Assembly: GCA_039804105.1 (NCBI GenBank) | Contig: JBDRZU010000001.1 | Span: 896,001-960,000, forward strand | DNA from: a candidate division WOR-3 bacterium | Lineage (GTDB): Bacteria; Hydrothermota; 32-111 | Length of the DNA stretch: 64,000 nt | Reading direction: 5' to 3' | Made by a program: the position numbers and the translations under genes | The notes under the pieces: model-generated | What the model was told of the DNA's origin: nothing | The model's database searches: none | What the model saw: only the letters and a program-made list of their open reading frames with translations | Shown: piece after piece, positions 13,472 to 49,184 of the stretch | Numbering within the stretch: the stretch's first letter is position 1 | How the letters are laid out: the number at the start of each line of letters is the position of its first letter

Positions 13472-13493
13472 CGAGACCTCCTCTCCGAGAATA

Positions 13494-13522
13494 ATTTTAT
13501 CCATCAACTTATTAATAGTCAA
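13494..13522 (-). promoter_or_regulatory. sigma70-type promoter of the giant-protein gene
   Basis: TTGACT-17nt-TAAAAT, followed by GAGGAGG-TCTCG-ATG. Confidence 0.65.
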
Positions 13523-30800: not shown

Positions 30801-31355
30801 CAGTTCAAACTCAATATTCTCGTGATAAAAAAGTTTATTTTCTTTTCTATCGTAAACAATTGGATTAATTTCAACCTGATAAATATATTCATCTTTTCTT
30901 TTCCCCAAAAATTTTAAATCTATAATTTTATCAGGGAATTTTTCGTTTGAATTATAAAATTTTTCATCTATAAAAAATTGATTGTTGTTTTGAGATTTTA
31001 TCACAGGTTTTTGTAGAGGATATATACCCTTTTCAGGGATTTGTATATTTATAATTTTTTGCTGACCTATTTTTACATTTTTTAGATCAAGATTTTCATC
31101 TTTTGAAGAAATTAAAAATCTATATGATGGGAGTTCAGGATATCCATATTTTGATGTTTTAAAACCATTTTTTACATCAATTTTTAAAAATCCTTCCTTT
31201 AAAAAGTATTCAAAACTTTTAAGTTTTATAACATATTTGTTGTTTAGCTTTTCAACTTTGAACCCATCTTCAGAGGAACCATCAATTTTAAAAGTTTCCG
31301 AAAAAATCATCATTGAAAATAAAAAAATAAAAAAAATTGCAAAAAATTTTTTCAT
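27882..31355 (-). CDS. gingipain-like C25 cysteine peptidase with T9SS CTD
   Basis: Propeptide (GYPELP), YVLLVGD, TDLYY, GIGRF, catalytic YSGHG and SYAC, YNLLGDP; CTD LKIYDITGRQL...KILFIK. Confidence 0.9.
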   Translation of the reverse strand: MKKFFAIFFIFLFSMMIFSETFKIDGSSEDGFKVEKLNNKYVIKLKSFEYFLKEGFLKIDVKNGFKTSKYGYPELPSYRFLISSKDENLDLKNVKIGQQKIINIQIPEKGIYPLQKPVIKSQNNNQFFIDEKFYNSNEKFPDKIIDLKFLGKRKDEYIYQVEINPIVYDRKENKLFYHENIEFELKEIIKQSEIQKSSLKRKILFVVNSTMKPFLQNFIKLKNKQGFYTEILLLDTVGYTKEQIKNGILNVYNNSIVPLEYVLLVGDVNLIPNYIGTETDFPPTDLYYTTLEGIDFLPDVGIGRFSVTDTSTLKVIVERNINYQNSLFNNTNNWTKKGYFMASDDASFHQVAESTHLYVMEKLRDSLMVIDSLFYYNETGTPISTAINSGRSLAVYSGHGSVTSWAGPTFYQSDILSLTNGDMLPFVSSYACLTGNYAYSSDCFGETWVKSGKSIAYLGSSVYSYWDEDDIMERKFFDYYIDSNYTNVSDLIYFAKLNVLNTFPSTGKRYFEQYNLLGDPSFEFYTNYDSLYIDVFSAIPSSNYDFDLFVYNRTNGLPVKNVKVSYILHDSLIDVGITDENGKITFYLFGETGDTIKFYAFKNNYKPDSSYSVITSSTFYPYIKKLIIKDTLFYFNQPDGNFTSADSGYVSLMVENNGLQPLLSLSCSVFVFTGNVKLYSNIFNFKDTILPSDSCFSLNSILFKVRDNVKNKTYDSLGFKFFSGDSSLNTKKRFFIYAPETKIETLFVISKNTSIFSNDTVDLRVKLKNYSNENDRKLKISIISNDTNKLSIIPESFDIPYLNGNDTFSVSGFTGYVKDLPLDTLYTVGLKIVYTDTLGFADTFFKTIYINKKDYLVLNYAKSSNSGFYIDSILKSWGYAGDLLNSIEYQNLTNYNYVFLTLGSYPNNYVIPSYDPVALMIDSLLNNGNIKLYIEGGEAFYWDPLYNNAFNFNYLCHVNPKSDGTSTSPSIYYGTGGTIGEGMILNYTPTSYNDLIDSINGSKRVFYNGLSGYVVSYKNDKYRTVASSIEFGNVVDNDSINSKRGWLRRIMDFFELKLNIEDLSLENDGEFKLLSIENSFKNNKISVVFTSKDNEKIKLKIYDITGRQLYSVDIIGNNGVNKYMVDLSSKKISSKILFVKLINEKNEEFTGKILFIK

Positions 31356-31373: not shown

Positions 31374-31435
31374 AATATAGTTTATTAGTTTTTTTAGTCA
31401 ATACTATTGACTGTTAAAATCTATTGTAATATAAC
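31374..31435. promoter_or_regulatory. divergent promoters with back-to-back -35 elements
   Basis: AGTCAATA-C-TATTGACT palindrome at 31396..31412. Minus strand: TTGACT-16-TATATT. Plus strand: TTGACT-17-TATAAC. Confidence 0.55.
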
Positions 31436-31454
31436 TTATTTAAAAGGAGGTGGA

Positions 31455-31967
31455 ATGAAATATTTGTTCCTATTAATGGTTCTTTCTTTAACTCTAATTT
31501 CATGCACGATAGGTCCTGTATACGTTTACAATTATCAGCCAGTAGTAAAGATACTTGCAGATACAACAGAGGTTACTTTCTTCGTACAGGATTTATCACC
31601 CGATGGTTGGTGGTCAGGAGATGGAGTAGATTCACTCAATTTCAAAATACTACTCTCTGAAATCAAAAAAGTAAAATCATATATAACTGATATTCAATTT
31701 AATATAGTAACAGAAACTTATGGCAACATTTTTGAAGATCGAATTTCTTTTTTAACTCCGATTGAATTATCCGGTTCAAAATCTGACACTTTAACATTGC
31801 CTTTATCAGTTAACGAACGAAACGCTTATTATACCGATATCTCTGATGGAATAAACGATAATGTCGGAAAGGCAGCAATCATTATAAAAGCTATATACTA
31901 TGATGAATTTGGAAACATTTATGAATCACTTCCTTTCTATCTACCAATCAAAGTAATAAAACCATGA
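31455..31967 (+). CDS. lipoprotein, tandem paralog 1
   Basis: AGGAGG SD, LISC lipobox, YNYQP and DGINDNVG motifs. Confidence 0.8.
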   Translation: MKYLFLLMVLSLTLISCTIGPVYVYNYQPVVKILADTTEVTFFVQDLSPDGWWSGDGVDSLNFKILLSEIKKVKSYITDIQFNIVTETYGNIFEDRISFLTPIELSGSKSDTLTLPLSVNERNAYYTDISDGINDNVGKAAIIIKAIYYDEFGNIYESLPFYLPIKVIKP

Positions 31968-31975
31968 GGTGAATT

Positions 31976-32485
31976 ATGAAAAAATTATCTTATATTTTAT
32001 TATTTTTCACAATCATTCTCTCTTCCTGTTATACATCACCTACTTCGATAAAGTATTATCAACCAATTTTGGATATAAGTATGAAAGACACCTTAAATTT
32101 TTCGATTCCACTTGGTAACGATTCTATATGGAACTATGAGGATGTTGATTCAATATATGAAAATATAATAATTTTTGAAAATCAGGGTTTGAATGCTTAT
32201 ATTACAGAAATAGATTGGGAAATCTACGATTATACAAACAGAATCAGAGAGGATTATAGCAAAATTTACCTAAATCCTGTAAAAATAGAAAAAAAATCGT
32301 CGGATACAATCTCTCTTCTTTTCTTTCTATATGGTTCTTCCGCTACAAGAATTGATGAGGGAGATGGAGTAGAAGATAATGTAGCTTATGGAACCATTCA
32401 GTTAAAGATAAAGTATTATGATGATAACGGTATAACTTACACTTCAAAGATATTCTACAAAAATATAAAAGCTGTTGTTGAATAA
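31976..32485 (+). CDS. lipoprotein, tandem paralog 2
   Basis: LSSC lipobox, YYQP and DGVEDNVA motifs. Confidence 0.8.
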   Translation: MKKLSYILLFFTIILSSCYTSPTSIKYYQPILDISMKDTLNFSIPLGNDSIWNYEDVDSIYENIIIFENQGLNAYITEIDWEIYDYTNRIREDYSKIYLNPVKIEKKSSDTISLLFFLYGSSATRIDEGDGVEDNVAYGTIQLKIKYYDDNGITYTSKIFYKNIKAVVE

Positions 32486-32497
32486 AGAGAGGTATAT

Positions 32498-33031
32498 ATG
32501 AAAAAAATATTTTTCATAATTATTTTTGTAACATTATTTGTCTCCTGTTCTATTGGTCCGATTCCAGTTTATTATTCTCAACCGATAGTTTCCCTTCTGG
32601 ATGATACACTTGAAGTTATTTTTTCTGTTCCTGATAAAGACATGTCTGGTTGGAATCACTATAATCAAAACAATATTGGTTCAGATACCGCTTTCCTTTC
32701 AATAGATGCTTATGAAACAACAGGAGAAAAAAGTTTCATAGAAAAGATCGAGTATAAATTTATAGTTGATGGCAATACAGTTGAAAGAGAAGATATAACA
32801 TATCCAATACCAATAGAAATTGAAGACAAAGATACCGTGAATTTGCCAGATCTCTTGGTCATAATAAACGAACCTCTCGCTTATGAAATCGATATTCAGG
32901 ATGGTTATGCTGACAATGTTGGAACAGGAATACTCGAAACAAAAGTATTTTATACTGATATAAAAGGAGAATCTTTTACTTCTGTTCCAATAAGAAAAAG
33001 ATTTAAAGTTATAAAACCTTTAACATATTGA
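32498..33031 (+). CDS. lipoprotein, tandem paralog 3
   Basis: FVSC lipobox, YYSQP and DGYADNVG motifs. Confidence 0.8.
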   Translation: MKKIFFIIIFVTLFVSCSIGPIPVYYSQPIVSLLDDTLEVIFSVPDKDMSGWNHYNQNNIGSDTAFLSIDAYETTGEKSFIEKIEYKFIVDGNTVEREDITYPIPIEIEDKDTVNLPDLLVIINEPLAYEIDIQDGYADNVGTGILETKVFYTDIKGESFTSVPIRKRFKVIKPLTY

Positions 33032-33056
33032 CTTTTGAAGATTTATTTAATATGAT
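33028..33056 (+). promoter_or_regulatory. promoter of the fourth lipoprotein
   Basis: TTGACT-17nt-TATGAT, then AAGGAGG. Confidence 0.6.
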
Positions 33057-33078
33057 TTTATCAAAGGAGGTATCAAAA

Positions 33079-33561
33079 ATGAAGAAAACAATTTTCTTTC
33101 TTACAGTTATATTGTTAATAACTTCCTGCACCCTATATGTGCCTACACCTGATTTCACAATCACATGGATAGATCCTCTTGGAAGTGTTATAACACCAAC
33201 AACAACTGAAGTACTTATTAACACAATAGATGTTGAAAACAATACTTCTTATGAAGCAGTACTTGATAGAATCTCCTATGATTATATCTATAATGGTGAT
33301 GTGATTTACGATGGTCAGGACATCTGGAATATATACGCTTTACTTCCGCCTACAGTAATAGATACTGCGACTGGAGATCCTATCAAAGGAAAAGCAAGTA
33401 TCGAAAATATTCCAATTCCAGTTCCAGCATCAATTTACACTTATATGGATTCAAGAGATATTCAGGGAGTAACTCTGAGGATATACATAAGTGGAACAGA
33501 CAATGTAAATAAAACAAAAAGAACAACAAAGTATGTAGATTACGGAATAGCAAAATATTAA
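33079..33561 (+). CDS. lipoprotein (divergent member of the cluster)
   Basis: AAGGAGG SD, ITSC lipobox, beta-rich. Confidence 0.8.
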   Translation: MKKTIFFLTVILLITSCTLYVPTPDFTITWIDPLGSVITPTTTEVLINTIDVENNTSYEAVLDRISYDYIYNGDVIYDGQDIWNIYALLPPTVIDTATGDPIKGKASIENIPIPVPASIYTYMDSRDIQGVTLRIYISGTDNVNKTKRTTKYVDYGIAKY

Positions 33562-37098: not shown

Positions 37099-37990
37099 TT
37101 TTTCTTATACCTTTTAAATTCAAAAAACCACAAAATAACCCTTTCATATAGAAAGAAAATTTTTTCGTTTTAATTATATGAAAAAGGATTGAAATTAAAG
37201 TTCCCAGAATAAATGATACCCAATTTTTCAAAGATAAAATTTTATAGTTTTTGAAATAGATAAAAACTCTGTTCCTACCTTCCCAGAACACTTTTTTTGA
37301 AGAATATTCACTCATTCTGTTTTCGAGTTTCGTCGTTCCTGAAATAAAATGATAACCAACGGTATCCGGTGTAAAAAGGATTTTAAATCCACATTTTTTT
37401 AACCTTAAAGAAAAATCAACATCTTCAAAGTACATAAAAAATCTTTCATCAAGCATTCCCGCTCTAACAAAACAATCTTTCAAAAAATAGCATATTGACA
37501 TCGAGAACCCTTTAACATCCCCTTTAATCATTTGTATTTCATATAATTTTTTACCATGAAGTTTTTTATAGGGTCTTATAAATTTTCCAACATCATCACC
37601 TGCAGAATCAATAAACTCTCCATTATAATCCAAAACCAACGGAGAAAAAAAATGATAATCTTTATTTTGAGTTATGTTTTCTATACAGTTTTTTATAAAA
37701 TTTTTTTCAAGATAAACATCGTTATTCAAAAGTATAATATTTTCAAACTTTGATTGTTTCACTCCAAGATTTACAGCAAAACTAAAACCTTTGTTCTCTG
37801 ATAATCTAAAAAGAGTCACATTCTTTAAATTTTTTAAAAGATACATATAACTTTTATCGGAACTATTGTTATCAACTAGTACAACTTCAGAATAGGGATA
37901 GGTTTGTTGGTTCAACGAAACAACAAGTTTTTCAACAAACTTATCACCATTGTAGTTTATGATAACAACAGAAACTTTATCGTTCAACAA
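37091..37990 (-). CDS. glycosyltransferase family 2
   Basis: Motifs VDNNSSD, NKGFSFAVN, LLNND, LDERFFMYFEDVDFS. Confidence 0.92.
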   Translation of the reverse strand: MLNDKVSVVIINYNGDKFVEKLVVSLNQQTYPYSEVVLVDNNSSDKSYMYLLKNLKNVTLFRLSENKGFSFAVNLGVKQSKFENIILLNNDVYLEKNFIKNCIENITQNKDYHFFSPLVLDYNGEFIDSAGDDVGKFIRPYKKLHGKKLYEIQMIKGDVKGFSMSICYFLKDCFVRAGMLDERFFMYFEDVDFSLRLKKCGFKILFTPDTVGYHFISGTTKLENRMSEYSSKKVFWEGRNRVFIYFKNYKILSLKNWVSFILGTLISILFHIIKTKKFSFYMKGLFCGFLNLKGIRKNG

Positions 37991-39851
37991 AGAATTTTCC
38001 TTTCATTTTTCTATTTTCAATTTCAAGTATATAGTAATAAAGTCCGGTTTTAAAGTTATTAATATCTATTTTTATGAAGTTTTCTGTCTTGATCCCTGAA
38101 TTTTCAAAAATTCTTTTCCCATCAACTGCAAACATTGTTACTCTATACATTCCCATAAACTCAGAGAATATGTTTATCTCGTCAACAGCAGGATTTGGAA
38201 AAACATAACTTTCAATCGTATCATTAACAAAAAACTCTAAAACCGTATCAATATCTGAAACGTTATTATATTCGTCAACTCCAGTTACAAACAAAATATT
38301 TTCTCCATAACCGATTTTATGAACGGTTCCAGCATTCGAATTAAGTATGGTTCTATAAAGATCTTTTATTTTATAAATTTTTAAATCGTCAAGATAAAGA
38401 TAAAAATCCTGTTCTAAATTCTTATTGAATTCGATTTTCAGAAGTCCTTTTTTGGTTATAAAGTAAAAAGGTTTCCAATCTACTAACTCTCCTTCAAATG
38501 ACTTTATTGGCTCTCCATTTAGATAGATAAAAAAAGATGAATCAGAAAATAACCCTTTATATTTAAAAGATATGATATTTTCTTCTTCAGATAAAAATAT
38601 TTCAAAAACAAAATTTCTGGTGAACAAAGAAAATGGCTTTGAATAGGGATACTGATCTGTTAAACAAAAATTCCCAGTAAAATTTTCAGGCAAAGAATCA
38701 AAGTTTTCTGTATATAAATCATAGGCATTTGAAAATTCAACATTGTAATTTTTTATAATAGAAAAATCGTATGATGGATCAAATGTTATTTTAAAATTGT
38801 TATTATTCATTTTTGCAAGTTCTATGTTATTTACAGGCAAAGGAGAAAAGGTATCGTTTATTCCATATGATAGAAATTCTTTTTTTATTATCTGAAAATC
38901 TTTATCGATACTTAAGTTTATGTAATCCTTATAAAGTTTATACAATGTTGAAAAATTCAATGGATAAAATAATTTTATTCCTTTAAATTTTTCATTTTTC
39001 GTCAAATTAATTATCACAGAATTTTTTAGGTTACATGAAACATCTGTTTCATCGATAATTGAAAAATTGTTTCTATCTGTGAATTTCAACTTGTCAATAT
39101 CTCTTACAATACTTTCAGTTTTAATCGTTGATACGGTTAAATCTTTATAGGATGTTGAATCATAATAATGTTCAAAATATTGTTCAGAGATAGTTATAGA
39201 GATATCTTCTAAATTATTTAAAGTATCTATGCTTTGAAGTATTTTATCATAAGGGAAACCATTATATGGAACTATACCTTCTGAACCAATAATGTAAGAA
39301 ACATAATCCTTGATCTCATAGACAACTTCTATCGATTGCATAAGACAGGCATCAAATATTAAAATATCTGTTTTTTTCTTTGTTTTTTTATATATATCCA
39401 AAAAAATATTTTTAAATTCACCATCAGTTATAGAAATAAAGTCAAACGGATGATTATCAAAAAATATCGATTTATCTTTTGAAGTAAAATTGTACCAACC
39501 ATTACCATGGTCCCATAAAACCATTATTCTTTTATCATAATCATACTTATAAAATGTTGAAAAAAAGTTTGAAATATTATGAAAATCACCTGAATTCACA
39601 TTATCAAAAACTTTAAGGGTCTCACTTCTTCCATCATATATTTTGAAGATAAAGGAATAGAAAGGTGAATCGAGAAAAATTATTATATCAGTATTTTTTA
39701 TTTTTTTTGAACTTTCAATCAATTGATTGTAATTTTTTAGAAAACCATTATAAAGATTGTTATCAGCACAAAAATATCCTATAAAAAGTATCTTAGATAT
39801 AAGAAAATGAGGTAAGAAAAAAAATATTAAAAAAAATGGTAACTTTTTCAT
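37977..39851 (-). CDS. clostripain-family (C11) cysteine peptidase with T9SS CTD
   Basis: Motifs YFCADNNL, LWDHGNGW, FDACLM; CTD YVFPNPA...TGLYYY...KFFVER. Confidence 0.85.
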   Translation of the reverse strand: MKKLPFFLIFFFLPHFLISKILFIGYFCADNNLYNGFLKNYNQLIESSKKIKNTDIIIFLDSPFYSFIFKIYDGRSETLKVFDNVNSGDFHNISNFFSTFYKYDYDKRIMVLWDHGNGWYNFTSKDKSIFFDNHPFDFISITDGEFKNIFLDIYKKTKKKTDILIFDACLMQSIEVVYEIKDYVSYIIGSEGIVPYNGFPYDKILQSIDTLNNLEDISITISEQYFEHYYDSTSYKDLTVSTIKTESIVRDIDKLKFTDRNNFSIIDETDVSCNLKNSVIINLTKNEKFKGIKLFYPLNFSTLYKLYKDYINLSIDKDFQIIKKEFLSYGINDTFSPLPVNNIELAKMNNNNFKITFDPSYDFSIIKNYNVEFSNAYDLYTENFDSLPENFTGNFCLTDQYPYSKPFSLFTRNFVFEIFLSEEENIISFKYKGLFSDSSFFIYLNGEPIKSFEGELVDWKPFYFITKKGLLKIEFNKNLEQDFYLYLDDLKIYKIKDLYRTILNSNAGTVHKIGYGENILFVTGVDEYNNVSDIDTVLEFFVNDTIESYVFPNPAVDEINIFSEFMGMYRVTMFAVDGKRIFENSGIKTENFIKIDINNFKTGLYYYILEIENRKMKGKFFVER

Positions 39852-39880
39852 AAAAAAGGTGGGGTTTAAAAACCCCACCT
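39852..39880 (-). terminator. intrinsic terminator after the porV-like gene
   Basis: AGGTGGGGTT-ttta-AACCCCACCT followed by a T run. Confidence 0.75.
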
Positions 39881-39887
39881 GATTTTA

Positions 39888-40940
39888 TTAGAAATTCAGA
39901 GTTAATGTAACTCTATGACCATTAATATAATTGTCTGAAAGAAGTCCCATTTCTGTATAGGAATAATCTATTCCAAGATCTATTCCAGAGAATCCATATT
40001 TGAAACCGATACCTGCTGTAAGGTTTTCAATCTTTTCATTCTGTGTAAGATCATCCATATTATCAAGAACATATTTGAATTTTTCCCAGTTGAATATATA
40101 TCCCAACCTTACAAAGAGTATTTTTGAAAGGTTGTATTCCATTCCGAATCTTATGTTCTCGGTTCCATCGTTTGGATTCTGAAATTCAAGAGTTGTTGTG
40201 AGGAAATTCGTTGGACCTTCAAGAATATCATACGCAAGACCAAAGTTGAAATTCATTGGAAGTGTGTATGTATCAGTTTTGTAGTAGATATTAAGTGGTG
40301 TTTGACCATCAGTCCATTTTGAGTATTTATCTGTTAATATTGTTCCACCTGTAAACATTCCCTCAGATCCAAAATTTCTGATAGACATTCCTATTCTCAA
40401 TGATTTGAAACCTGTTTTATAGAGTGCTCCAGCGTCAAATGCTATCATTGTTGATGTTGCATCTACAATCTTTTCCTGTATATATTTTAATGTTACACCA
40501 GAAGTAAGCTTATCTGTAAAAGATTTTGCATAGGATGCTCCAACAACATAACTTGATGCTGAGAAATATTCTCCTGTTCCTTCTGGTTTATCAACTGTTG
40601 TTATCTCCATTTGAGGCATTGTCATTATTCCTGCCTGTAAACCTAAAGCACCCATTATTCCCATTGGAGCAGCAAAAGCAACATATGAATAACTTATTTC
40701 CGCTGGATATTTAACATAATTAAGAAGCAGCCCCATCTTGTTCATCGTTGCAATTCCTGCTGGGTTGTAATAGAGTGCTGATGGATCATCAGCAACAGAA
40801 ACAAATGCACCACCCATCGCAGTTGCTTTCGAGCCAACCAATATTTTCAAAAACTGAGCACCTGTGGTTCCTTCATTGAAAGAATAGGCAAAATTTGCTA
40901 AAAGTGAAATCGATATGATTATTAATAATAATTTTTTCAT
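39888..40940 (-). CDS. PorV/PorQ-family outer-membrane beta-barrel
   Basis: N-terminus AQFLKI.VG.KA.AMGGAFVSVADDPSALYYNPAG; terminal LTLNF. Confidence 0.85.
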   Translation of the reverse strand: MKKLLLIIISISLLANFAYSFNEGTTGAQFLKILVGSKATAMGGAFVSVADDPSALYYNPAGIATMNKMGLLLNYVKYPAEISYSYVAFAAPMGIMGALGLQAGIMTMPQMEITTVDKPEGTGEYFSASSYVVGASYAKSFTDKLTSGVTLKYIQEKIVDATSTMIAFDAGALYKTGFKSLRIGMSIRNFGSEGMFTGGTILTDKYSKWTDGQTPLNIYYKTDTYTLPMNFNFGLAYDILEGPTNFLTTTLEFQNPNDGTENIRFGMEYNLSKILFVRLGYIFNWEKFKYVLDNMDDLTQNEKIENLTAGIGFKYGFSGIDLGIDYSYTEMGLLSDNYINGHRVTLTLNF

Positions 40941-40948
40941 TGTTCCTC

Positions 40949-43900
40949 CTACTTAATGATAGCAAATTTGCCAATTTTTGTTTCACCATTAGGTGTTTGA
41001 ACATGATAGATGTAAATTCCCGGTGCTGGTATCTGATCATTTTTCGTCAAAAGATCCCACTCAGCATATCCTTTTGTTAAGTCATATGCTGTCGTTGTCT
41101 GATTGTCTTTTGTTATTGTAATTTCTACATCATGATTGATAGTTTTTATCAATTCACCTGAAAGTGTGTAAATTCTGATTGTGCACTTATCAGGTAAATT
41201 TGTGAAAAGAATTCTTCTATAGTTATAGTCAAGATCAAGTTCACTTCTGACAACATATGGGTTTGGAACAACTTTAATTTTATCAAGGGTTGATTTTACA
41301 ACATCGGTGAATGTTGCTGGAGTAACTGTGAATTTGAACGAAGAATTTATTGGTGGATATGTTAAAACAAACGCTGTATCATTTGGAGTCACTCTTACAA
41401 TCCAGACATCACCATCTTTTGGTCTTGAACTCCAGACCATTGGTCTTAGCGGTAATGGCGAATTGTTAAATTTCAAAATAATGTTTGAGAAATAAAGACC
41501 TACTTTTACAGTATTGGGTGAACTTGATTTTAGATATTTTGGATTCTGAGATGGAAGGGCAGTTGATGAGATATTGAAATGCCAGTTATCACCTATAGTT
41601 CTACTATTGTACGGAATTTCAATGTTGTTATCAACATCAAAAATCGTTACAGTTAGGTTTGTGTCGTTTGGCAGGAAAGTATCTGTTCCAATAACAGTAA
41701 GTGTTGGATAAACTACTTCATGCCATGTTATGATATATTCTTTACTATTATGATAGAACTGCCTTCCTTTTGCGGCAAGTTCGGCTTTCATGATTGAACT
41801 ATCGTAAGTACCACTCTGGACACTAACTTTGAAGGTTGAATTACTTGTATTCATCCATCCAGTTGTATCAAGTGTGAAACTGTTTATTTTGAATAGGAAA
41901 CCAGAATATGGATTCCATTTTTCAGATGGAAGACCAATTATCTGTTCATTGTTAATCCAAAGAGTATCTAAATCCATCCTATCCTCTATCACTATATCAC
42001 CATTTTTATTTGTGATCGTATATGGATATGCAGGGGTATATATTGTATAAACTGAACTATCTGCAAGTCCAAAAGTCAAGGTAAAAGTATCATTTTTGAC
42101 TTTTTCGATCATTGTATCAAGTGCATGTATAATTTCCATTTTTATCAAAGATGTATCAATATTACCTGATATAAAATTGATCGAATAAGTACCTGGTGAA
42201 AGGTTTGAAGTTAAAGCTCTTGGAACTGCTGCTTTCGTTTTTCCAGCACCTTCAAGAACAAGTGGTATCGCACCGATTGTATCATTCGTTGGAGTAACAG
42301 CATACCCGTTAAAATTAACGTCATAAGCCCTTACTGTATAATAATACTGGATTCCATTTGTAAGGTTTGAATCAACAAAATAGTACGGAATTCCGGTATT
42401 TGAACCGACCGTGTCATAGTAGTATGTTGTTTCATATCTTGCTGCTGCTGCATTGTAATATATCAAAGAATCTTTTAAGACAATCGTATATTCATTGATT
42501 TTATCGAATTTACCAATAAGTTCCCATGTTCCACCTGCACCTGTTCTTGATCTGTAGACATTGTATCCCTCAACATCATATTCTCTATAAGCAGGGTTAT
42601 ATGTTGGAAGTGAAGGATCTGAAACAAGAGTGTAGTATTTGTCTGGAATCAATTCCTGAGCATTATCCCAGTATATAATTACCTTTTTATCCATTCCAAC
42701 AACATCAAAGTTAACCTGCCCAGGTGCAACCGGTCCAAGCCAACCCTGATCATAAATCTGTTGTGCTATAAGCATTTTGTTTAACATTTCAGCAGAGTTC
42801 TTCGAAATTATTATTCCAATTATAACTGTTGCAGTTGAATCATATTTGAGTGTGAATGGTCCTGATGCCATTGCAAATCTTTTATCACCTTTTGCTGTTG
42901 GATCCTCTGTCTTTCCAGGATAACCTGGAACACCCTGTCCCCATGTTGGAAATGGTCTATATGATGCTTCAGGATCATTCGGGTTATAAATTGTATGATC
43001 ATAACCAGCAAGAACGAGATATCTTTTAATATGATCAGAAGGATCAGTTTGTATTGTAAAATAGTTGAATGTTGTCATTCCAATTCTTTCCCCTGCTGGT
43101 ATAATGAAAGAACCATCATGATAAAGATCTATTGGTTCAGTTGCTCTTGGTGATTCAAGATATTTGTATGCAACGATTCCCGGGAAATGAGTCCACCCAG
43201 CCTCTGATTCGAGTTGGAACTGATATCCTACATTGATCTGCATCAAAGTATCATTAACACCAGCATAATCAACTGTCATTGTATCAATGAACCCCAAAAG
43301 ATCGTTTGCAGCAGTTCCTGCTTCGTTTCCTATATCGTTATCAGCACCGATACCAACATAACATTTCTTGATATCTTTGTGATCGCTTCTTTTGTTCTGT
43401 ATTTCATACTTTATGAAAATAATATCTTCTTTCAATGGCCCAACCCAGGCGTATGTTGTTTGTTTTACTTCGATTTCAAGAGGTTTTGAACTTGCAACAA
43501 GGCGATACGCTATATCCATATCGTTGAATTCAGTATAGGAATCCTGCATTGAAACAACTGAGTCAGCACCTGATGTTGTTTTCAAAGGCCATGGTTGTCC
43601 ATAGTTATCACTTGTTGAAATGTATACAATATCCCATGGGTTTGTATACGGTGTTGGTCTATCTGGTGATGCATCATTTATATCACCAGGGACAAATTCT
43701 GTTGATGCAGAGTTTGGATAATAACCACATGACATAGTTGTATCTGCTGTTCCATCATCATTTTCAATTATTCCACCAACCCACACTCCTGCACCAAACA
43801 CATATGTTTCCTGCGGAAAACCAGCAGGCCAATAAAGACCTGAGTTGTTTCCAGAATAAACATCCTGACCAAAAATTGCAAAGTTTGTAATCCATGTGTT

Positions 43901-44044
43901 TATCTGATTTATATCAAGCATCCTCTGATCAAATATTTTCCCAGAGGTCATCTTTGGATCTATATATGCAGGACGAGCAAAAATAGCTATTGAAAAAAGG
44001 AGTGTGAGGAGGATTAAAAATACAGTTTTGTTAATTTTATTCAT
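40949..44044 (-). CDS. large secreted protein with T9SS-like C-terminal domain
   Basis: Signal peptide; FN3-like segment (VIIYWD...GYNVYRS...YYYTVRAYD); CTD IKVVPNPY...FTNLP..CTIRIYTLSGELI...GIYIYHV...GKFAIIK. Confidence 0.8.
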   Translation of the reverse strand: MNKINKTVFLILLTLLFSIAIFARPAYIDPKMTSGKIFDQRMLDINQINTWITNFAIFGQDVYSGNNSGLYWPAGFPQETYVFGAGVWVGGIIENDDGTADTTMSCGYYPNSASTEFVPGDINDASPDRPTPYTNPWDIVYISTSDNYGQPWPLKTTSGADSVVSMQDSYTEFNDMDIAYRLVASSKPLEIEVKQTTYAWVGPLKEDIIFIKYEIQNKRSDHKDIKKCYVGIGADNDIGNEAGTAANDLLGFIDTMTVDYAGVNDTLMQINVGYQFQLESEAGWTHFPGIVAYKYLESPRATEPIDLYHDGSFIIPAGERIGMTTFNYFTIQTDPSDHIKRYLVLAGYDHTIYNPNDPEASYRPFPTWGQGVPGYPGKTEDPTAKGDKRFAMASGPFTLKYDSTATVIIGIIISKNSAEMLNKMLIAQQIYDQGWLGPVAPGQVNFDVVGMDKKVIIYWDNAQELIPDKYYTLVSDPSLPTYNPAYREYDVEGYNVYRSRTGAGGTWELIGKFDKINEYTIVLKDSLIYYNAAAARYETTYYYDTVGSNTGIPYYFVDSNLTNGIQYYYTVRAYDVNFNGYAVTPTNDTIGAIPLVLEGAGKTKAAVPRALTSNLSPGTYSINFISGNIDTSLIKMEIIHALDTMIEKVKNDTFTLTFGLADSSVYTIYTPAYPYTITNKNGDIVIEDRMDLDTLWINNEQIIGLPSEKWNPYSGFLFKINSFTLDTTGWMNTSNSTFKVSVQSGTYDSSIMKAELAAKGRQFYHNSKEYIITWHEVVYPTLTVIGTDTFLPNDTNLTVTIFDVDNNIEIPYNSRTIGDNWHFNISSTALPSQNPKYLKSSSPNTVKVGLYFSNIILKFNNSPLPLRPMVWSSRPKDGDVWIVRVTPNDTAFVLTYPPINSSFKFTVTPATFTDVVKSTLDKIKVVPNPYVVRSELDLDYNYRRILFTNLPDKCTIRIYTLSGELIKTINHDVEITITKDNQTTTAYDLTKGYAEWDLLTKNDQIPAPGIYIYHVQTPNGETKIGKFAIIK

Positions 44045-44059
44045 ATTTTTCCTCCATCC

Positions 44060-47000
44060 TTAGAATGAGAATTCAAGACCCAGAGTGATAACTCTTGGTG
44101 CAGACCAGTTCGTTGGGTCATTAAGATAATCTTTATAGTAAGCGATATAAGATTCATAAGCTTCATCTTGTGAAACTGTTCCATCTCTATTTATATCTCT
44201 TCTGACATCATATCCCGGCTGTCCAATCGTATATGCATTGAATATGTCTTTTTTAATAGAGGCAAGTGTTGCGTTTCTGTCTGGAAGACCTGTTGAAGCA
44301 TAAACATCAACAACATTTCTTATGTTGAACAGGTTTGTTACAGTAACATAGAAGTTTGGTTCGAATGTTCCAATTAAGAAACCTTTTCTGAATTTCAAAT
44401 CAGTGTTGAATGTCCATGGTTTTCTTTCACTATTTGTAACACCTGTTTTAACACCTTTTTCGTTAACAGGAGTATATGGTTGTCCAGAGTTGATCGAATT
44501 ATCTATCGAAAGTGTCCAATTATCAGCGTATATTGGCAATTCTTTTGCTGGCATTCTCAAAACAAAACCGATATTTATAGTATGTCTTTGATCAAATGAT
44601 AGATAATAAGGAATCTTTGGCATCTGAATGTCACCACCTGTTACAGGATCTCTTTCAGAATATGTTAGATAATATCCTTCCCATGCATCAGATGCTGTTC
44701 CTTTTGCAAATGAAAGTGTATAAGCGATATCTGTTGAGAAATATTTAGATGATTTTGAAAATGCAACTTCAAGACCTTTCACATTACCATATTCAACATT
44801 TTGCAAAGCATAATAAGGTGCTGGTAATGCATAGACCTTTCTTGAACCAATAAGTCCATATATATCTTTATAATAGGTTGTGACATCTAAAGCCATATCA
44901 GCACCGATTTGGGTTGCTATACCAAATTCGTAAGATATTGTTCTTTCTGCATCAAGGTTTGGTGAACCTATATTTGAGTTTCCTCTTTTTGAAAGATCAA
45001 CACCCATTCCAGAGAAGAGATAATCCATCTGTGGGGTCTGGAAGAAATGACCATAGTTGAAATGTAAAACTGAGACCTCTGAAATTGGATGTGATATACC
45101 CAATCTTGGTGAGAATTTATACTTTTTAGCAGCCATTCTTACTGGCCATGTTAAAGTATCCCAAACAGAATCAGGATATCCTGGATATGAATCAGGTTTT
45201 GTTATATTTGGATTTGGAGTTATAATTATTGTTGTATCACCTGTAATTGTGTCAATTATAGTATCCTGTTGATAGAGTGGGAAACTTCTATTGTTTGCAA
45301 CATAATAGAATGGAGTGTTTGCATCAAGATAATCGAATCTAAGACCTATGTTAACAACCATTCCTTCAAATTCCATCTTATCCTGTACATATGCTGCTGC
45401 CTGTTTTGGATAAACATGGTACTGATCTGAGAATGGATTTGGATCCCATGGAAGATATAGATCCCAGAGATATAATTCATATGCTTTAAACTCAACACCT
45501 GTTTTCATCTCATGGTATCTTCCAATCTGACTTGTCCAATCAGCTTTTACTGTTAGATAATTTGAATATCTAAAACTTGAACTACCATACCAGTTTGGAT
45601 AGATATACTGTGCATCGATCCACCATCCCCATGGAGAGTTGTTTTTCCATTTATCAACCATTCCTGGAACATAATGGAAGTTGTTTGTATCTATCACACC
45701 ATAAGGTTTCCAGAATTCATACCATTTTGGGATAACAACTTCTGGTGGATAAACTGTATCACCATTTTCATCAAAAAGTATCCCATCAAATTCTGGTCCA
45801 TAATGTGTTTGTGTATAGAAATAACTACCAGTTAATGTGACAAAATTTGCCTGGTTTATCATCCAGTTTGCAGTTCCATTGATCTGATATCCATCGGTGT
45901 TTCTTGTAATGAATCTTTCAAGGTTATACTTTAATGAATTGTTAAACTGTTGATAAGAAGAATGTGAATAGAAACCACCAAGATTTATTTTCAAGTTGTT
46001 GGTTGGTTTTACTGTGAACTTTGCCTGTGCATGGTATTCACTTCTTTTGTGGTGTGGGACAACAACACCTAAATTATCCCAGTATGTTGGACCATATCTG
46101 TTCCACATAACCGTGTCAAGCACAACCTTATTAAAATAGTATGTTATATTATTAACAGAGTCATAAACAGTATCAACACCATATTTAAAATATGGAACAG
46201 AGTCCTGTGTCCAGTTCGCTGTTGTATATGTTGTTTCAATATAAGCGTTACCTAAAGAATCATAAGCAATATTGTAATCTACAAAATCATAAGAGAAAGC
46301 GTAACCTGTTGAATCATTTTTATAGAAAAAGTTTGGTTTATCAACAAAAAGAGGTGACCAATCGTTTGTGACATAAATATCACCTGAAACAAAAAATCTC
46401 AAAAGATCTTTATAAATTGGACCACCAATTGAATATTCTAACCTATTATCACCATAGTTAAATGATTTTGGAAGGAATGAATTTCCTTCATATCTTATTG
46501 TTCCTTCATACTTTTTAGCACCTTCCCTTGTAACGATGTTCAAAATTCCTGACATCGCCTCACCATATTCAGCATTGAATCCACCAGAGATGAATTTCAC
46601 CTCTGATACAGCATTTTTATTGATTGTAGCACCAAGTCCCTTTGTAACTGGATCTATGATCGACATACCATCGACCATGTATCCAACCTCATCAGTTCTT
46701 CCACCTCTAACATGTAATTGTGTTCCAGAACCAACAACACCAGCGTTGTTTGCTACAGCAGCCATAATGTTGTTTGAGACTGACTCATCAAGAAGTTGCT
46801 GGTTCATCGTTCTTTCCTTTTGTGTAACATTCGTTTGTATCTTTGACTCTTTCGCTTCAACTATAACGGTATCATATTCGATAGCACCCATGACAAGTTC
46901 AAAGTTGACAGTTGTATTGATATCAGCGGAAACTGAGATATTTGTTTTTGTCTGGGTCTGATATGATATTATCTGAGCGGTAACGGAATAAACTCCAACT

Positions 47001-47212
47001 GGGACATTCAGAATAAAATAGTATCCATCAAGATCTGTAACAGCACCGATTCCAAGTTCTGGTATTATAATGTTAACACCAGGGATACCTTCTTTTGTCT
47101 GTTTGTCAATAACTCTTCCAGTTATTTTTCCTGTAACACCAGCAAAAACATTAACTGAGAAGAGAAGGACCAGAAGGAGAATAATTCCAAAAAGATAATT
47201 TTTCTTAAACAT
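44060..47212 (-). CDS. TonB-dependent receptor with N-terminal carboxypeptidase-regulatory-like domain
   Basis: GKITGRVID...TDLDGYYFILNVPVG; plug HVRGGRTDEVGYMVDG and SGGFNAEYG; FSPRLGISHP; terminal LGLEFSF. Confidence 0.92.
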   Translation of the reverse strand: MFKKNYLFGIILLLVLLFSVNVFAGVTGKITGRVIDKQTKEGIPGVNIIIPELGIGAVTDLDGYYFILNVPVGVYSVTAQIISYQTQTKTNISVSADINTTVNFELVMGAIEYDTVIVEAKESKIQTNVTQKERTMNQQLLDESVSNNIMAAVANNAGVVGSGTQLHVRGGRTDEVGYMVDGMSIIDPVTKGLGATINKNAVSEVKFISGGFNAEYGEAMSGILNIVTREGAKKYEGTIRYEGNSFLPKSFNYGDNRLEYSIGGPIYKDLLRFFVSGDIYVTNDWSPLFVDKPNFFYKNDSTGYAFSYDFVDYNIAYDSLGNAYIETTYTTANWTQDSVPYFKYGVDTVYDSVNNITYYFNKVVLDTVMWNRYGPTYWDNLGVVVPHHKRSEYHAQAKFTVKPTNNLKINLGGFYSHSSYQQFNNSLKYNLERFITRNTDGYQINGTANWMINQANFVTLTGSYFYTQTHYGPEFDGILFDENGDTVYPPEVVIPKWYEFWKPYGVIDTNNFHYVPGMVDKWKNNSPWGWWIDAQYIYPNWYGSSSFRYSNYLTVKADWTSQIGRYHEMKTGVEFKAYELYLWDLYLPWDPNPFSDQYHVYPKQAAAYVQDKMEFEGMVVNIGLRFDYLDANTPFYYVANNRSFPLYQQDTIIDTITGDTTIIITPNPNITKPDSYPGYPDSVWDTLTWPVRMAAKKYKFSPRLGISHPISEVSVLHFNYGHFFQTPQMDYLFSGMGVDLSKRGNSNIGSPNLDAERTISYEFGIATQIGADMALDVTTYYKDIYGLIGSRKVYALPAPYYALQNVEYGNVKGLEVAFSKSSKYFSTDIAYTLSFAKGTASDAWEGYYLTYSERDPVTGGDIQMPKIPYYLSFDQRHTINIGFVLRMPAKELPIYADNWTLSIDNSINSGQPYTPVNEKGVKTGVTNSERKPWTFNTDLKFRKGFLIGTFEPNFYVTVTNLFNIRNVVDVYASTGLPDRNATLASIKKDIFNAYTIGQPGYDVRRDINRDGTVSQDEAYESYIAYYKDYLNDPTNWSAPRVITLGLEFSF

Positions 47213-47242
47213 TATTACTCTCCTTTTTAAATCTTAAATTGT

Positions 47243-47273
47243 AAAAAAAAGGGGAAACAAAGTTTCCCCTTTT
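47243..47273 (-). terminator. intrinsic terminator after the 631-aa gene
   Basis: AAAAGGGGAAAC-ttt-GTTTCCCCTTTTTTTT on the minus strand. Confidence 0.8.
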
Positions 47274-47288
47274 GAATAATTGAAAAAC

Positions 47289-49184
47289 TTATTTAACTGT
47301 GACAATCTTCTTTGTGAAACTGTTGACACCATCGTTAACTTTCACAAAGTAAACACCTTGTTTGAGATTAAGATTGAGCGAGTGTGTTCCTTTTGCGAAG
47401 AATTTTTTAACTTTGTTTACAACTCTACCTGTTGCATCATAAACTGATATTTCAACATTCCTTCCTTCACTCATAACAAAACTTATTGCTCCATTCTTGC
47501 TGAATGAGGAAATATTGTAAACATTTTTATTAACTTTTGAAGAAATTTCTGAATTAATTCCCCATACAGTTGTTCCAAGTTCTTCCCAAACAATTGTTGG
47601 ATCGTTTATATCAACTGATGCATAATATATTGAATCCTGTGAACCAGAAACACCTGCTATGTGTATTAATCCATTTTCGTCAACATATTTACCACATTCA
47701 ACTTCATAAAGTCCTGCATTTAATATAATTGTTGATCTATAAACTTTATCTGTAACAGGATCAAGTTTCAACGCTTCAACTGATGTTCCACCAAATGCTG
47801 GATCAACATAATCAAGGTAAACTATATACATATTATCTGTTGCTTCATCATAGCAGAGGTTTGCACTGTATGCATTTCCTCTCCATGTTGCTGTTGTTCC
47901 TGTATTATCCAAAATATCACCATCATGTATATCTATATAGTCGTATCTAAAGTTTGTTTCACCATCAAATTTATATCCAAAAAGAATTGACTGACCCTGC
48001 CATATGAATGTATAGAGATCACCTGATTCATAATAGTCAACAAAAAGATCAGCCATTGGCACAACATAAGCCATCACACCTGTACCTCTTTCTGGATAGA
48101 ATTCAGCATCCCACCAGTACCACCATGTTCCAAATCCATCTCCAAGTGGTTGTCCAAGTTCATCTGTCCATCCACCTGTTGCAACATCAAGATATGCTTT
48201 AACAGCAAATGCATCGTTTGTTGTATTTGCTGTAGTATCAAGATTATAAATTACTGTATCACCATTTAGTGTATTGACATTTGGCCAGATGTTTCCATCA
48301 AAAAGTCCATAGAAAGCATCCCATGTAACACCAAGATCTGTTGTCTTTGCATAACCTGGAACTATGGCTGAACCAGGACCTGATGGATAAATGTCTGACC
48401 TTGTTTCATCTTTCCACACCATTCCAAAAATACCATGAACATCATCGTTGTTTCCCCATCTTATTGCTGAAACATCTATATCCCAGAGAGTATCATTGTT
48501 AAGTGTTGCTGGCCAATCGTATGTTCCCCATGTTGCACCGTAATCTGTTGAGTAGTTTGAACCAAATCCACCCATCGCATCATAAGCGATCATTACAACT
48601 TTGTCTCCATCAGGATTAACTGCTATTGATGGCATATAAGCCACATAATTTGCTGTATCTGTCACAAGTATTGGTGCACTCCATCCACCACCATTTGCTC
48701 CAAGAAGATCTGCTGTGAACCAATCACCCCAATATGCTGAGGTTCTATAGTTTACTATAACATATGGTGCTTCACCTAATGCTGCAACTGATGCCATTTC
48801 GTTATAGTTTCTTGCAAATGGACCTGATGCTGTTATCAGTGTTGGAGTTGACCATGTTGAACCACCATCTGTTGTTGCTGTATAATAAACACCTCTAAAA
48901 GCACCACCATTATACCAACCGGTAACAACCTGTATTATCTGTCCATCTTTTGATGAAACAATACTCTGAAGTGGTGTTGGAGCAAATCCTCTCATATCAC
49001 CACCAAGTTCAAGTATTCCCTTCATACCTGCTGCCTGTGCATTGGCATCTTTTGTTTCGAAGAATTTACCATCCTGTGAAACTTTTGTGACCTGTTTTAT
49101 CTTTGCAAGTGCATCATTTGCTGGCATTGCAAACAATGAAAATGCAAATGCCAATACAAAGAGAAGAACAAAAATTCTCTTCAT
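47289..49184 (-). CDS. T9SS-sorted protein with BNR/Asp-box motifs
   Basis: Asp-boxes TTDGGSTW, STDYGATW, TTDLGVTW; CTD ISVYDATGRVV...QGVYFVKV...KKIVTVK. Confidence 0.85.
   Translation of the reverse strand: MKRIFVLLFVLAFAFSLFAMPANDALAKIKQVTKVSQDGKFFETKDANAQAAGMKGILELGGDMRGFAPTPLQSIVSSKDGQIIQVVTGWYNGGAFRGVYYTATTDGGSTWSTPTLITASGPFARNYNEMASVAALGEAPYVIVNYRTSAYWGDWFTADLLGANGGGWSAPILVTDTANYVAYMPSIAVNPDGDKVVMIAYDAMGGFGSNYSTDYGATWGTYDWPATLNNDTLWDIDVSAIRWGNNDDVHGIFGMVWKDETRSDIYPSGPGSAIVPGYAKTTDLGVTWDAFYGLFDGNIWPNVNTLNGDTVIYNLDTTANTTNDAFAVKAYLDVATGGWTDELGQPLGDGFGTWWYWWDAEFYPERGTGVMAYVVPMADLFVDYYESGDLYTFIWQGQSILFGYKFDGETNFRYDYIDIHDGDILDNTGTTATWRGNAYSANLCYDEATDNMYIVYLDYVDPAFGGTSVEALKLDPVTDKVYRSTIILNAGLYEVECGKYVDENGLIHIAGVSGSQDSIYYASVDINDPTIVWEELGTTVWGINSEISSKVNKNVYNISSFSKNGAISFVMSEGRNVEISVYDATGRVVNKVKKFFAKGTHSLNLNLKQGVYFVKVNDGVNSFTKKIVTVK

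Follow-up and report, generated by a model that had tools for sequence, protein, structure and literature searches.

A TonB-dependent transporter, a secreted cargo and a PorV/PorQ-family barrel in a WOR-3 bacterium: a candidate counterpart of SusC/SusD

Can a protein secreted through a type 9 secretion system (T9SS) and held on a barrel of its own do for a TonB-dependent transporter (TBDR) what SusD does for SusC? The question is raised by three adjacent genes in a stretch of 64,000 nucleotides, hereafter the window, from the genome of a candidate division WOR-3 bacterium (contig JBDRZU010000001.1, positions 896,001 to 960,000). A preliminary description, made from the sequence alone, had assigned the genes to a TBDR, a large secreted protein with a T9SS-type C-terminal domain (CTD), here called the cargo, and a dedicated PorV-family barrel. 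In the order of reading the triad consists of:

44060..47212, minus strand, TBDR gene (open reading frame of 1050 amino acids)
40949..44044, minus strand, gene of the cargo, the candidate surface partner (open reading frame of 1031 amino acids)
39888..40940, minus strand, PorV/PorQ-family barrel gene (open reading frame of 350 amino acids)

Our analysis indicates that this triad is real and widespread, apparently undescribed, and a new combination of known parts. The best reading is that it works like SusC/SusD in a polysaccharide utilisation locus (PUL), yet has no SusD family member, lipobox or SusC model, and follows the tethering logic of PorZ-PorQ. We lean, if modestly, towards the view that the three genes form one nutrient-import unit, in which the barrel-tethered cargo would capture oligomers for the TBDR as SusD does for SusC.

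Gene order and co-divergence across phyla

The genes are as tightly spaced as first described, with gaps in the open reading frame coordinates of 15 nt between TBDR and cargo and 8 nt between cargo and barrel, and a Shine-Dalgarno-like motif (AGGAG/GGAGG/AGGAGG) precedes each of the three starts. The family assignments of the two membrane proteins were likewise confirmed. PF13715, PF07715 and PF00593 all match the TBDR above cut-off, and the barrel scores 175.6 bits with NF033709 (PorV/PorQ family; cut-off 90).

Conservation was analyzed in a set of 112 loci, composed of 72 loci that come from the top 80 among at least 551 confirmed stretches and 40 hand-picked loci. The labels of the 72 include WOR-3/TA06-type, Edwardsbacteria, Zixibacteria, Latescibacteria, Ignavibacteria, KSB1, Marinimicrobia, Calditrichota, Glassbacteria, Poribacteria, Gemmatimonadota and others. 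Across the 112 related loci of many phyla the triad, for which the preliminary description had proposed a synteny check, largely keeps its order. A profile of the cargo CTD separated the scores into those of at most 38 bits, one at 71 and those of at least 92 bits. For 98 of the 101 high-scoring (special-CTD) cargos there was downstream room, and a PorV-like gene came next in 90, after one gene in 6 and not at all in 2. Among low-scoring genes, which carry ordinary CTDs, it lay directly downstream in 1 of the 55 with room. The TBDR was found directly upstream of 87 of the 89 special-CTD cargos with upstream room. Twenty further paralog loci from four multi-copy genomes had the TBDR directly upstream in 16 cases and the barrel directly downstream in 13. 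The claim of a dedicated PorV thus holds in that the CTD class is linked to a neighbouring PorV-like gene, but that barrel is not obligatory.

The trees of TBDR, cargo and barrel, built for 77 triads, are congruent, which bears out the proposed co-phylogeny. The cargo tree shares 46 of the 57 supported TBDR splits and the barrel tree 41; of the splits in the cargo tree, 40 of 52 came back for the barrel (at most 3 in shuffles in each case); Mantel rho among the three trees was 0.90, 0.77 and 0.74. This congruence indicates that the operon was inherited whole. Where a genome has two triads (11 cases), partners grouped with their counterparts from other genomes, and 1 of 66 look-ups gave the same-genome paralog as nearest neighbour; several genomes hold 7–10 divergent special-CTD copies. 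With equal column numbers, the distances of the TBDR barrel and of the N-terminal domain (N-domain) of the cargo correlated at 0.88, the best of 15 pairs, and the other pairs, including those within the cargo, gave 0.74–0.83. A shared substrate and a direct contact would both give such tracking.

Additional genes accompany the triad in some loci. A lipoprotein-like protein of about 345 aa with no Pfam match, possibly a fourth subunit, is encoded directly 5′ of the TBDR gene in 30 loci (L084:434-1564 and 29 others), the window not being one of them. An NHL-propeller/PKD protein of about 590 aa stands between cargo and barrel in L111, L116, L117, L120 and L121, and a CTD protein with a cargo-like part takes this position in L109. 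L138 carries two special-CTD cargos in tandem, and in L012, L015, L017 and L048 a second TBDR gene directly follows the barrel gene.

The cargo, its C-terminal domain and the two barrels

The cargo has a signal peptide by eye and no cysteine within its first 100 residues, hence no lipobox. It matched no Pfam family, and the type A CTD model TIGR04183 matched weakly (19.1 bits, cut-off 23). Its family counts 10,697 representatives at 50% identity (E <= 0.001, partial-domain matches included), and its named relatives include WOR-3 proteins. An AlphaFold2 model from a 73-row alignment (pLDDT 88.6, pTM 0.67), compared with known structures, gave the following division:

42740..43942, minus strand, galactose-mutarotase-like beta-supersandwich with closing helix, cargo residues 35-435 (model and structure comparison)
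42209..42733, minus strand, fibronectin type III (Fn3) domain with long insertions, cargo residues 438-612 (Z about 12, rmsd about 2 over about 90 residues)
41309..42208, minus strand, variable all-beta region, cargo residues 613-912 (best Z 6.5)
40952..41296, minus strand, long conserved T9SS-type CTD (VVPNPY...F.NLP...IYTLSG...WDLL...GKFAIIK), cargo residues 917-1031

Residues 35-435 aligned to 9ju0 with a Z of 19.1 and an rmsd of 3.3 over 254 residues. This N-domain is best matched by N-terminal domains from dextran dextrinase, glucoamylase and enzymes of glycoside hydrolase (GH) families GH94/65/116, with Z of 16–19 at about 10% identity. The helical catalytic barrel of these enzymes is absent from the cargo model, which has no such helices past residue 475. 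The N-domain profile found no PDB sequence match and no named Atlas cluster, and single-sequence PDB searches with the cargo and with the TBDR were uninformative. The preliminary description had seen no recognisable catalytic motif in the cargo; its predicted fold, a beta-supersandwich with Fn3, is recognisable. The model leads us to predict that the beta-supersandwich is a ligand-binding or TBDR-facing domain. Only D175, N217 and P299 are invariant in the N-domains of all 77 triads, and no His or Glu column reaches 80%; aldose 1-epimerases have a conserved catalytic His/His/Glu set.

The only match that structure comparison offered for residues 613-912 was to FlgK/FlgL-type flagellar domains, which gives no clear fold. 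The region, which we take to be dispensable, was undetected in several paralogs of about 700–870 aa. Its reading as a repeat of the N-domain was rejected (hhalign probability 0.3%). D-(S/T)-x motifs, the O-glycosylation signal of Bacteroidota, occur at 1.65 per 100 aa in the cargo and 1.24 per 100 aa in the TBDR (genome median 0.39, 90th percentile 1.27).

The atypical CTD motifs first reported for the cargo are present in the sequence, and the CTD is its best-conserved part, with a mean identity of 48%. The loop glycine G963 is conserved in 100% and the last-strand lysine K1026 in 94%; by our own mapping these would correspond to T9SS motifs given in the accessible part of PMC11285876. Within the genome, the CTD profile scored the window cargo at 129 bits and the next protein at 30. 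The only PDB matches of the cargo family profile were the tails of PorZ and PorU (E 0.006), which a CTD-only profile found at E 0.013 and 0.057, and PorZ, the top Foldseek match, aligned with the CTD over 94 residues (Z 13.6, rmsd 1.9). According to the part of PMC10202324 available to us, these two tails escape cleavage and are held by PorQ (PorZ) and PorV (PorU). From this likeness we infer, with moderate confidence, that the cargo retains its CTD. The high conservation of the CTD together with the private barrel argues for a lasting, specific bond between the two. The earlier analogy with type B CTDs did not hold, as CHU_C matched 1 of 18 members (E 0.0014) and the barrel belongs to PorV/PorQ, not PorP/SprF. 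Judged by likeness in sequence and fold, the nearer precedent for the cargo-barrel pair is PorZ-PorQ/PorU-PorV rather than type B/SprF.

The barrel lies below the equivalog cut-offs (44.8 of 250 bits for PorV, 104.3 of 220 for PorQ and 65.9 of 325 for PorV2) and has a PDB match to PorV at E 1.5e-4. It is the triad-type paralog among six PorV/PorQ-family matches in the genome, and a stronger match to this family, of 203 bits, is found elsewhere. A CTD protein with a PorV-like barrel and no TBDR occurs at C1:397953-400817 (657-aa protein) and at C1:873300-878770 (1501-aa PorU-like protein). These two pairs indicate that the combination of a cargo with its own barrel recurs in the genome.

The TBDR is composed of a signal peptide (by eye), a CarboxypepD_reg-like N-terminal domain (residues 30-118), a plug (128-222) and a barrel with long loops, whose family profile matches the PhuR, Cir and PfeA structures. 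The terminal aromatic residue F1050 is kept in 88% of triads. No SusC/RagA model was among its NCBIfam matches at E <= 0.01. A match to an anammox S-layer protein model (NF052345) was rejected, as it covers the N-terminal domain only (41.6 of 1400 bits). Close to the C-terminus there is a D-I-N-R-D-G motif that resembles a calcium loop. One further element lies between the N-terminal domain and the plug:

46853..46873, minus strand, TonB-box-like segment DTVIVEA, TBDR residues 114-120

We liken this segment to a TonB box on the consensus assumed for it. Its majority residues in the 77 triads are V116 (59/77), V118 (65/77) and A120 (60/77).

Neighbouring genes and genome setting

The triad is bordered by two terminator-like hairpins and two genes of secreted proteins:

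47289..49184, minus strand, 631-aa protein, upstream, bearing an ordinary type A CTD and, by eye, Asp-box-like repeats
47243..47269, minus strand, terminator-like hairpin with T run, behind the 631-aa gene upstream
39850..39880, minus strand, terminator-like hairpin with a stem of 10 pairs and a T run, behind the barrel gene
37977..39878, minus strand, clostripain-family (C11) protease with an ordinary type A CTD, adjoining the triad downstream

The flanking terminators of the preliminary description were thus recovered; the hairpins span 47269-47252 and 39880-39857, and a T run comes after each. The total number of hairpins in the scan is not above chance (9 versus 6.1 +/- 2.6 in shuffles); the two that flank the triad are both placed at boundaries of gene blocks. 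Since the upstream hairpin ends about 30 nt before the TBDR start, transcription of the triad may continue from the 631-aa gene or begin at an overlapping promoter. No RNA holder is listed over window positions 39800-47300.

The classes of neighbouring genes follow the clades of the triad. Clade A, with 24 triads, is whole in the TBDR tree and has 23 of its 24 members together in the cargo and barrel trees. It has neighbours with GH13 or carbohydrate-binding module (CBM) CBM20/48 domains in 19 of 24 loci and C11/S8 proteases in none, and it takes in five loci of the window's phylum, three with sugar ABC genes. Non-clade-A triads have starch-related neighbours in 0 of 52 and C11/S8 proteases in 16 of 52 loci. 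The window groups with the latter, and its C11 gene directly downstream has a counterpart in its nearest relative, L008, and in 13 more loci. A clostripain neighbour is hence kept in the window's branch (14 of 52 non-clade-A triads), in agreement with the neighbouring proteases first noticed, and relatives of the 631-aa protein lie near the triad in 8 of these 52 loci. By their classes of neighbours the triad loci look like PULs. In clade A the barrel gene is followed, in the manner of SusE/SusF, by genes of CBM20/48 proteins that bear ordinary CTDs, and a gene for a PPIC-type peptidyl-prolyl isomerase lies near the triad in 14 of 24 loci (L046-L078).

Elsewhere in the window, positions 4064-13522 (minus strand) encode a secreted protein of 3152 aa with reelin-subrepeat/BNR matches and a CTD-like tail. 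A C25 protease of the gingipain family with propeptide and CTD-like tail is encoded at 27882-31355 (minus strand), and four tandem lipoprotein-like open reading frames of 169–186 aa, none with a Pfam match, lie at 31407-33561 (plus strand).

The genome measures 1.81 Mb with 30% G+C and is 85% complete. It has one exbB-exbD-exbD-tonB operon (G000:C1, about 731-733 kb), one further TBDR (phmmer), PorU-like C25 genes and at least 18 proteins with ordinary CTDs (strict pattern). A SprA-like gene of 1806 aa is located at G000:C1:151396-156816 (L082), with a weak PF14349 match; a gene for a TMEM260-like O-mannosyltransferase lies two genes upstream of it. PF07980 was unmatched in this 85%-complete genome, in a search with a positive control, in accordance with the earlier claim that SusD is lacking. 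Of 80 genomes from the window's phylum, none gave a match to SusD (PF07980 only) in a search whose positive control worked. All 80 had matches to the cargo profile, many of them to single domains and not triads. Two N-domain paralogs that end in a type A CTD of the ordinary kind are encoded amid further CTD genes of the genome:

G000:C1:523766-525310, N-domain paralog with ordinary type A CTD
C1:1234881-1236869, N-domain paralog with ordinary type A CTD

A possible mechanism, its alternatives and its meaning

In the mechanism we propose, all three proteins would be exported by Sec, and the β-barrel assembly machinery (BAM) would insert both barrels. The cargo would pass SprA and be handed over to its cognate barrel, where it would keep its CTD and stay tethered as in PorZ-PorQ. 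The Fn3 and variable domains would then serve as an arm placing the beta-supersandwich over the outer face of the TBDR, and TonB would pull the plug of the TBDR open. Secreted hydrolases of the locus, a clostripain here and GH13/CBM20 proteins in clade A, would supply the oligomer substrate. We consider it probable that the cargo is tethered on the barrel, and equally so that it works with the TBDR in import; direct contact of the two as lid and transporter is close to an open call, leaning slightly towards the negative. A complex prediction for the smaller homologous triad L075, with the plugless TBDR barrel and the cargo N-domain (998 residues, 57-row alignments, controls not folded), gave ipSAE values of 0.00 and 0.00 against a mark of 0.32, which under the rule of the tool weighs neither for nor against such contact.

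Several known systems share parts of this arrangement. In SusC/SusD and RagA/RagB, a TBDR with a CarboxypepD_reg-like domain is likewise followed directly by a co-diverging surface partner, and the PULs of Bacteroidota resemble the paralogous triad loci in being flanked by substrate-specific hydrolases and binding proteins. The SusD fold, however, is that of a helical lipoprotein, whereas the triad partner is all-beta with a CTD and no lipobox, the third gene encodes an anchor and the TBDR has no SusC/RagA match in NCBIfam. With PorZ-PorQ and PorU-PorV of the Porphyromonas gingivalis T9SS attachment complex the triad has two features in common, a long PorZ/PorU-like CTD and a barrel of the PorV/PorQ family, and by this analogy a one-to-one tethering with the tail kept is likely. 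Unlike PorZ and PorU, the cargo has no C25 protease or propeller domains, is linked to a TBDR and occurs in many paralogous sets. Enzymes of GH15/GH65/GH94/GH116 and aldose 1-epimerases share the N-terminal beta-supersandwich fold (Z 12–19), but at about 10% identity for the GH enzymes, and the cargo has Fn3 instead of the helical (alpha/alpha)6 catalytic barrel of the GH enzymes. BtuG is a non-SusD surface partner on a TBDR (BtuB-BtuG). In BamG-BamH a surface protein is held, next to a larger barrel, by a FadL/PorV-like barrel of 14 strands, as described in the accessible part of PMC12578637. The partners in BamG-BamH and BtuB-BtuG differ from the cargo in being lipoproteins without a CTD, and the large barrel of BAM is BamA. 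Type B CTD cargos are also clustered with their own anchoring barrel, PorP/SprF (PMC10202324, same part), unlike the triad, whose CTD falls outside type B and whose barrel matches PorV/PorQ.

The preliminary description knew of no functional account of such a module, and our full-text literature search, with subscription papers and supplements outside its scope, found none on the triad either. The accessible parts of PMC5317091 (Caldithrix genome) and PMC12578637 (BAM) do not describe it, nor does that of PMC13543919 (2026 transporter review), where PorV, type IX, FCB and Ignavibacter are not mentioned.

As a whole, the interpretation first offered is sustained in part, by conservation, co-divergence, the link between CTD and barrel and the PUL-like context; its type B/SprF precedent was given up. 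A number of observations weigh against the import unit proposed here. The co-divergence follows from duplication of the whole operon, and contact does not follow from it. Of the 101 high-scoring cargos, 76 were in the training set of the CTD profile. The likeness of the CTD to PorZ/PorU is marginal in E-values and thus weak evidence of retention; in the accessible part of PMC11285876, the CTD of mirolase is also nearest to PorZ/PorU, and no known sequence feature separates cleaved from uncleaved tails. GldM and GldN were unmatched in the genome and GldN in the 80 genomes, in searches where no control matched and which did not include GldK/GldL; this makes the export route of the cargo less certain. 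The N-domain with an ordinary CTD and without TBDR or barrel nearby occurs twice in the genome and also in L009, L016, L018 and L027, which indicates that it is not a TBDR-specific lid. Finally, the split in neighbours rests on one clade and so amounts to about one event, and 36 of 52 non-clade-A loci have no C11/S8 protease within available flanks, which differ in length. On these last grounds we regard the import of peptides by the window copy as about evenly balanced.

Four other explanations were considered. The cargo could be a barrel-anchored enzyme (epimerase, lyase or hydrolase) that makes or trims substrate beside the TBDR, like SusG and not SusD. Its fold is also that of aldose 1-epimerase entries and a GH174 fucanase (Z 12–14), and its N-domain is also met by itself, joined to an ordinary CTD, in the manner of secreted enzymes. 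In addition, invariant polar residues are specific to clades; those of the window's clade (D235, D237, D387 and R389) could be catalytic and weigh against a mere binding role, although such residues also fit a diversified binding face. On the other hand, the best matches are to N-terminal domains of helical-barrel enzymes, the N-domain has just three invariant positions and no His or Glu column of at least 80%, and one scaffold serves both starch-type and protease-type loci with dedicated hydrolases alongside. We therefore hold an anchored enzyme to be unlikely. It is less plausible still that the barrel is a private shuttle and that, once a PorU-like protease has cut off the CTD, the cargo is set free or joined to a surface glycolipid, loosely serving the TBDR. 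The PorU-like C25 genes and the lack of an adjacent barrel in 7 of 20 paralog loci, which makes that barrel usual and not obligatory and so also counts against our proposal, would suit such a shuttle, and PorV does shuttle cleaved cargos (PMC10994853, accessible part). However, the many ordinary-CTD proteins could be served by the separate, stronger family match of 203 bits, and the CTD forms a distinct score class (129 versus 30 bits) and is far more conserved than a disposable signal.

To a similarly low degree we would credit a TBDR that works outward, exporting the cargo or lending TonB energy to a T9SS without GldKLMN, with the barrel as receiver. Removal of PorV-bound cargo from SprA needs energy (PMC10994853, same part), and Oar, a TBDR, is required for protease secretion in Myxococcus (PMC6434023, in its accessible part). 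The unmatched GldM/GldN, in searches where no control matched, and cargo-family matches in all 80 phylum genomes, as a housekeeping part might show, point the same way; but many of these matches are single domains, the SprA-like 1806-aa gene is present, several genomes carry 7–10 divergent special-CTD copies, and the neighbours are substrate-class enzymes and sugar ABC transporters. Most improbable is a structural or adhesive surface protein whose gene is linked to the others by co-regulation only. The all-beta multi-domain build and the density of D-(S/T)-x motifs would fit it, whereas the order fixed over many phyla and the tight tracking of the TBDR barrel by the N-domain speak against it.

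We return to the import unit as the reading we prefer. As a wider and tentative proposal, possible rather than probable, most non-Bacteroidia phyla of the Fibrobacterota-Chlorobiota-Bacteroidota (FCB) group (WOR-3, Ignavibacteria, KSB1, Calditrichota, Marinimicrobia, Zixibacteria, Latescibacteria, Gemmatimonadota and others) might feed via a third importer architecture, a two-barrel, three-protein utilisome with a T9SS substrate on a private PorV barrel as its lid. CTD-barrel tethering might have begun in this role, in a motor-less T9SS and before there was a SusD lipoprotein lid, and a single beta-supersandwich scaffold might have diversified to handle starch, peptides and further polymers. 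The family of the cargo, which is very large, lacks a Pfam model and carries the annotation hypothetical. Ignavibacteria and Calditrichota have cultured relatives, in which the triad is testable. If the cargo is a counterpart of SusD, the triad would be a marker for PULs and peptide-uptake loci in many uncultured phyla of sediments, hot springs and digesters in which tools based on SusC/D pick up nothing, and type 9 secretion would be directly tied to TonB-dependent import. It would also provide many natural CTD-barrel pairs in which to study why some CTDs escape cleavage by PorU.

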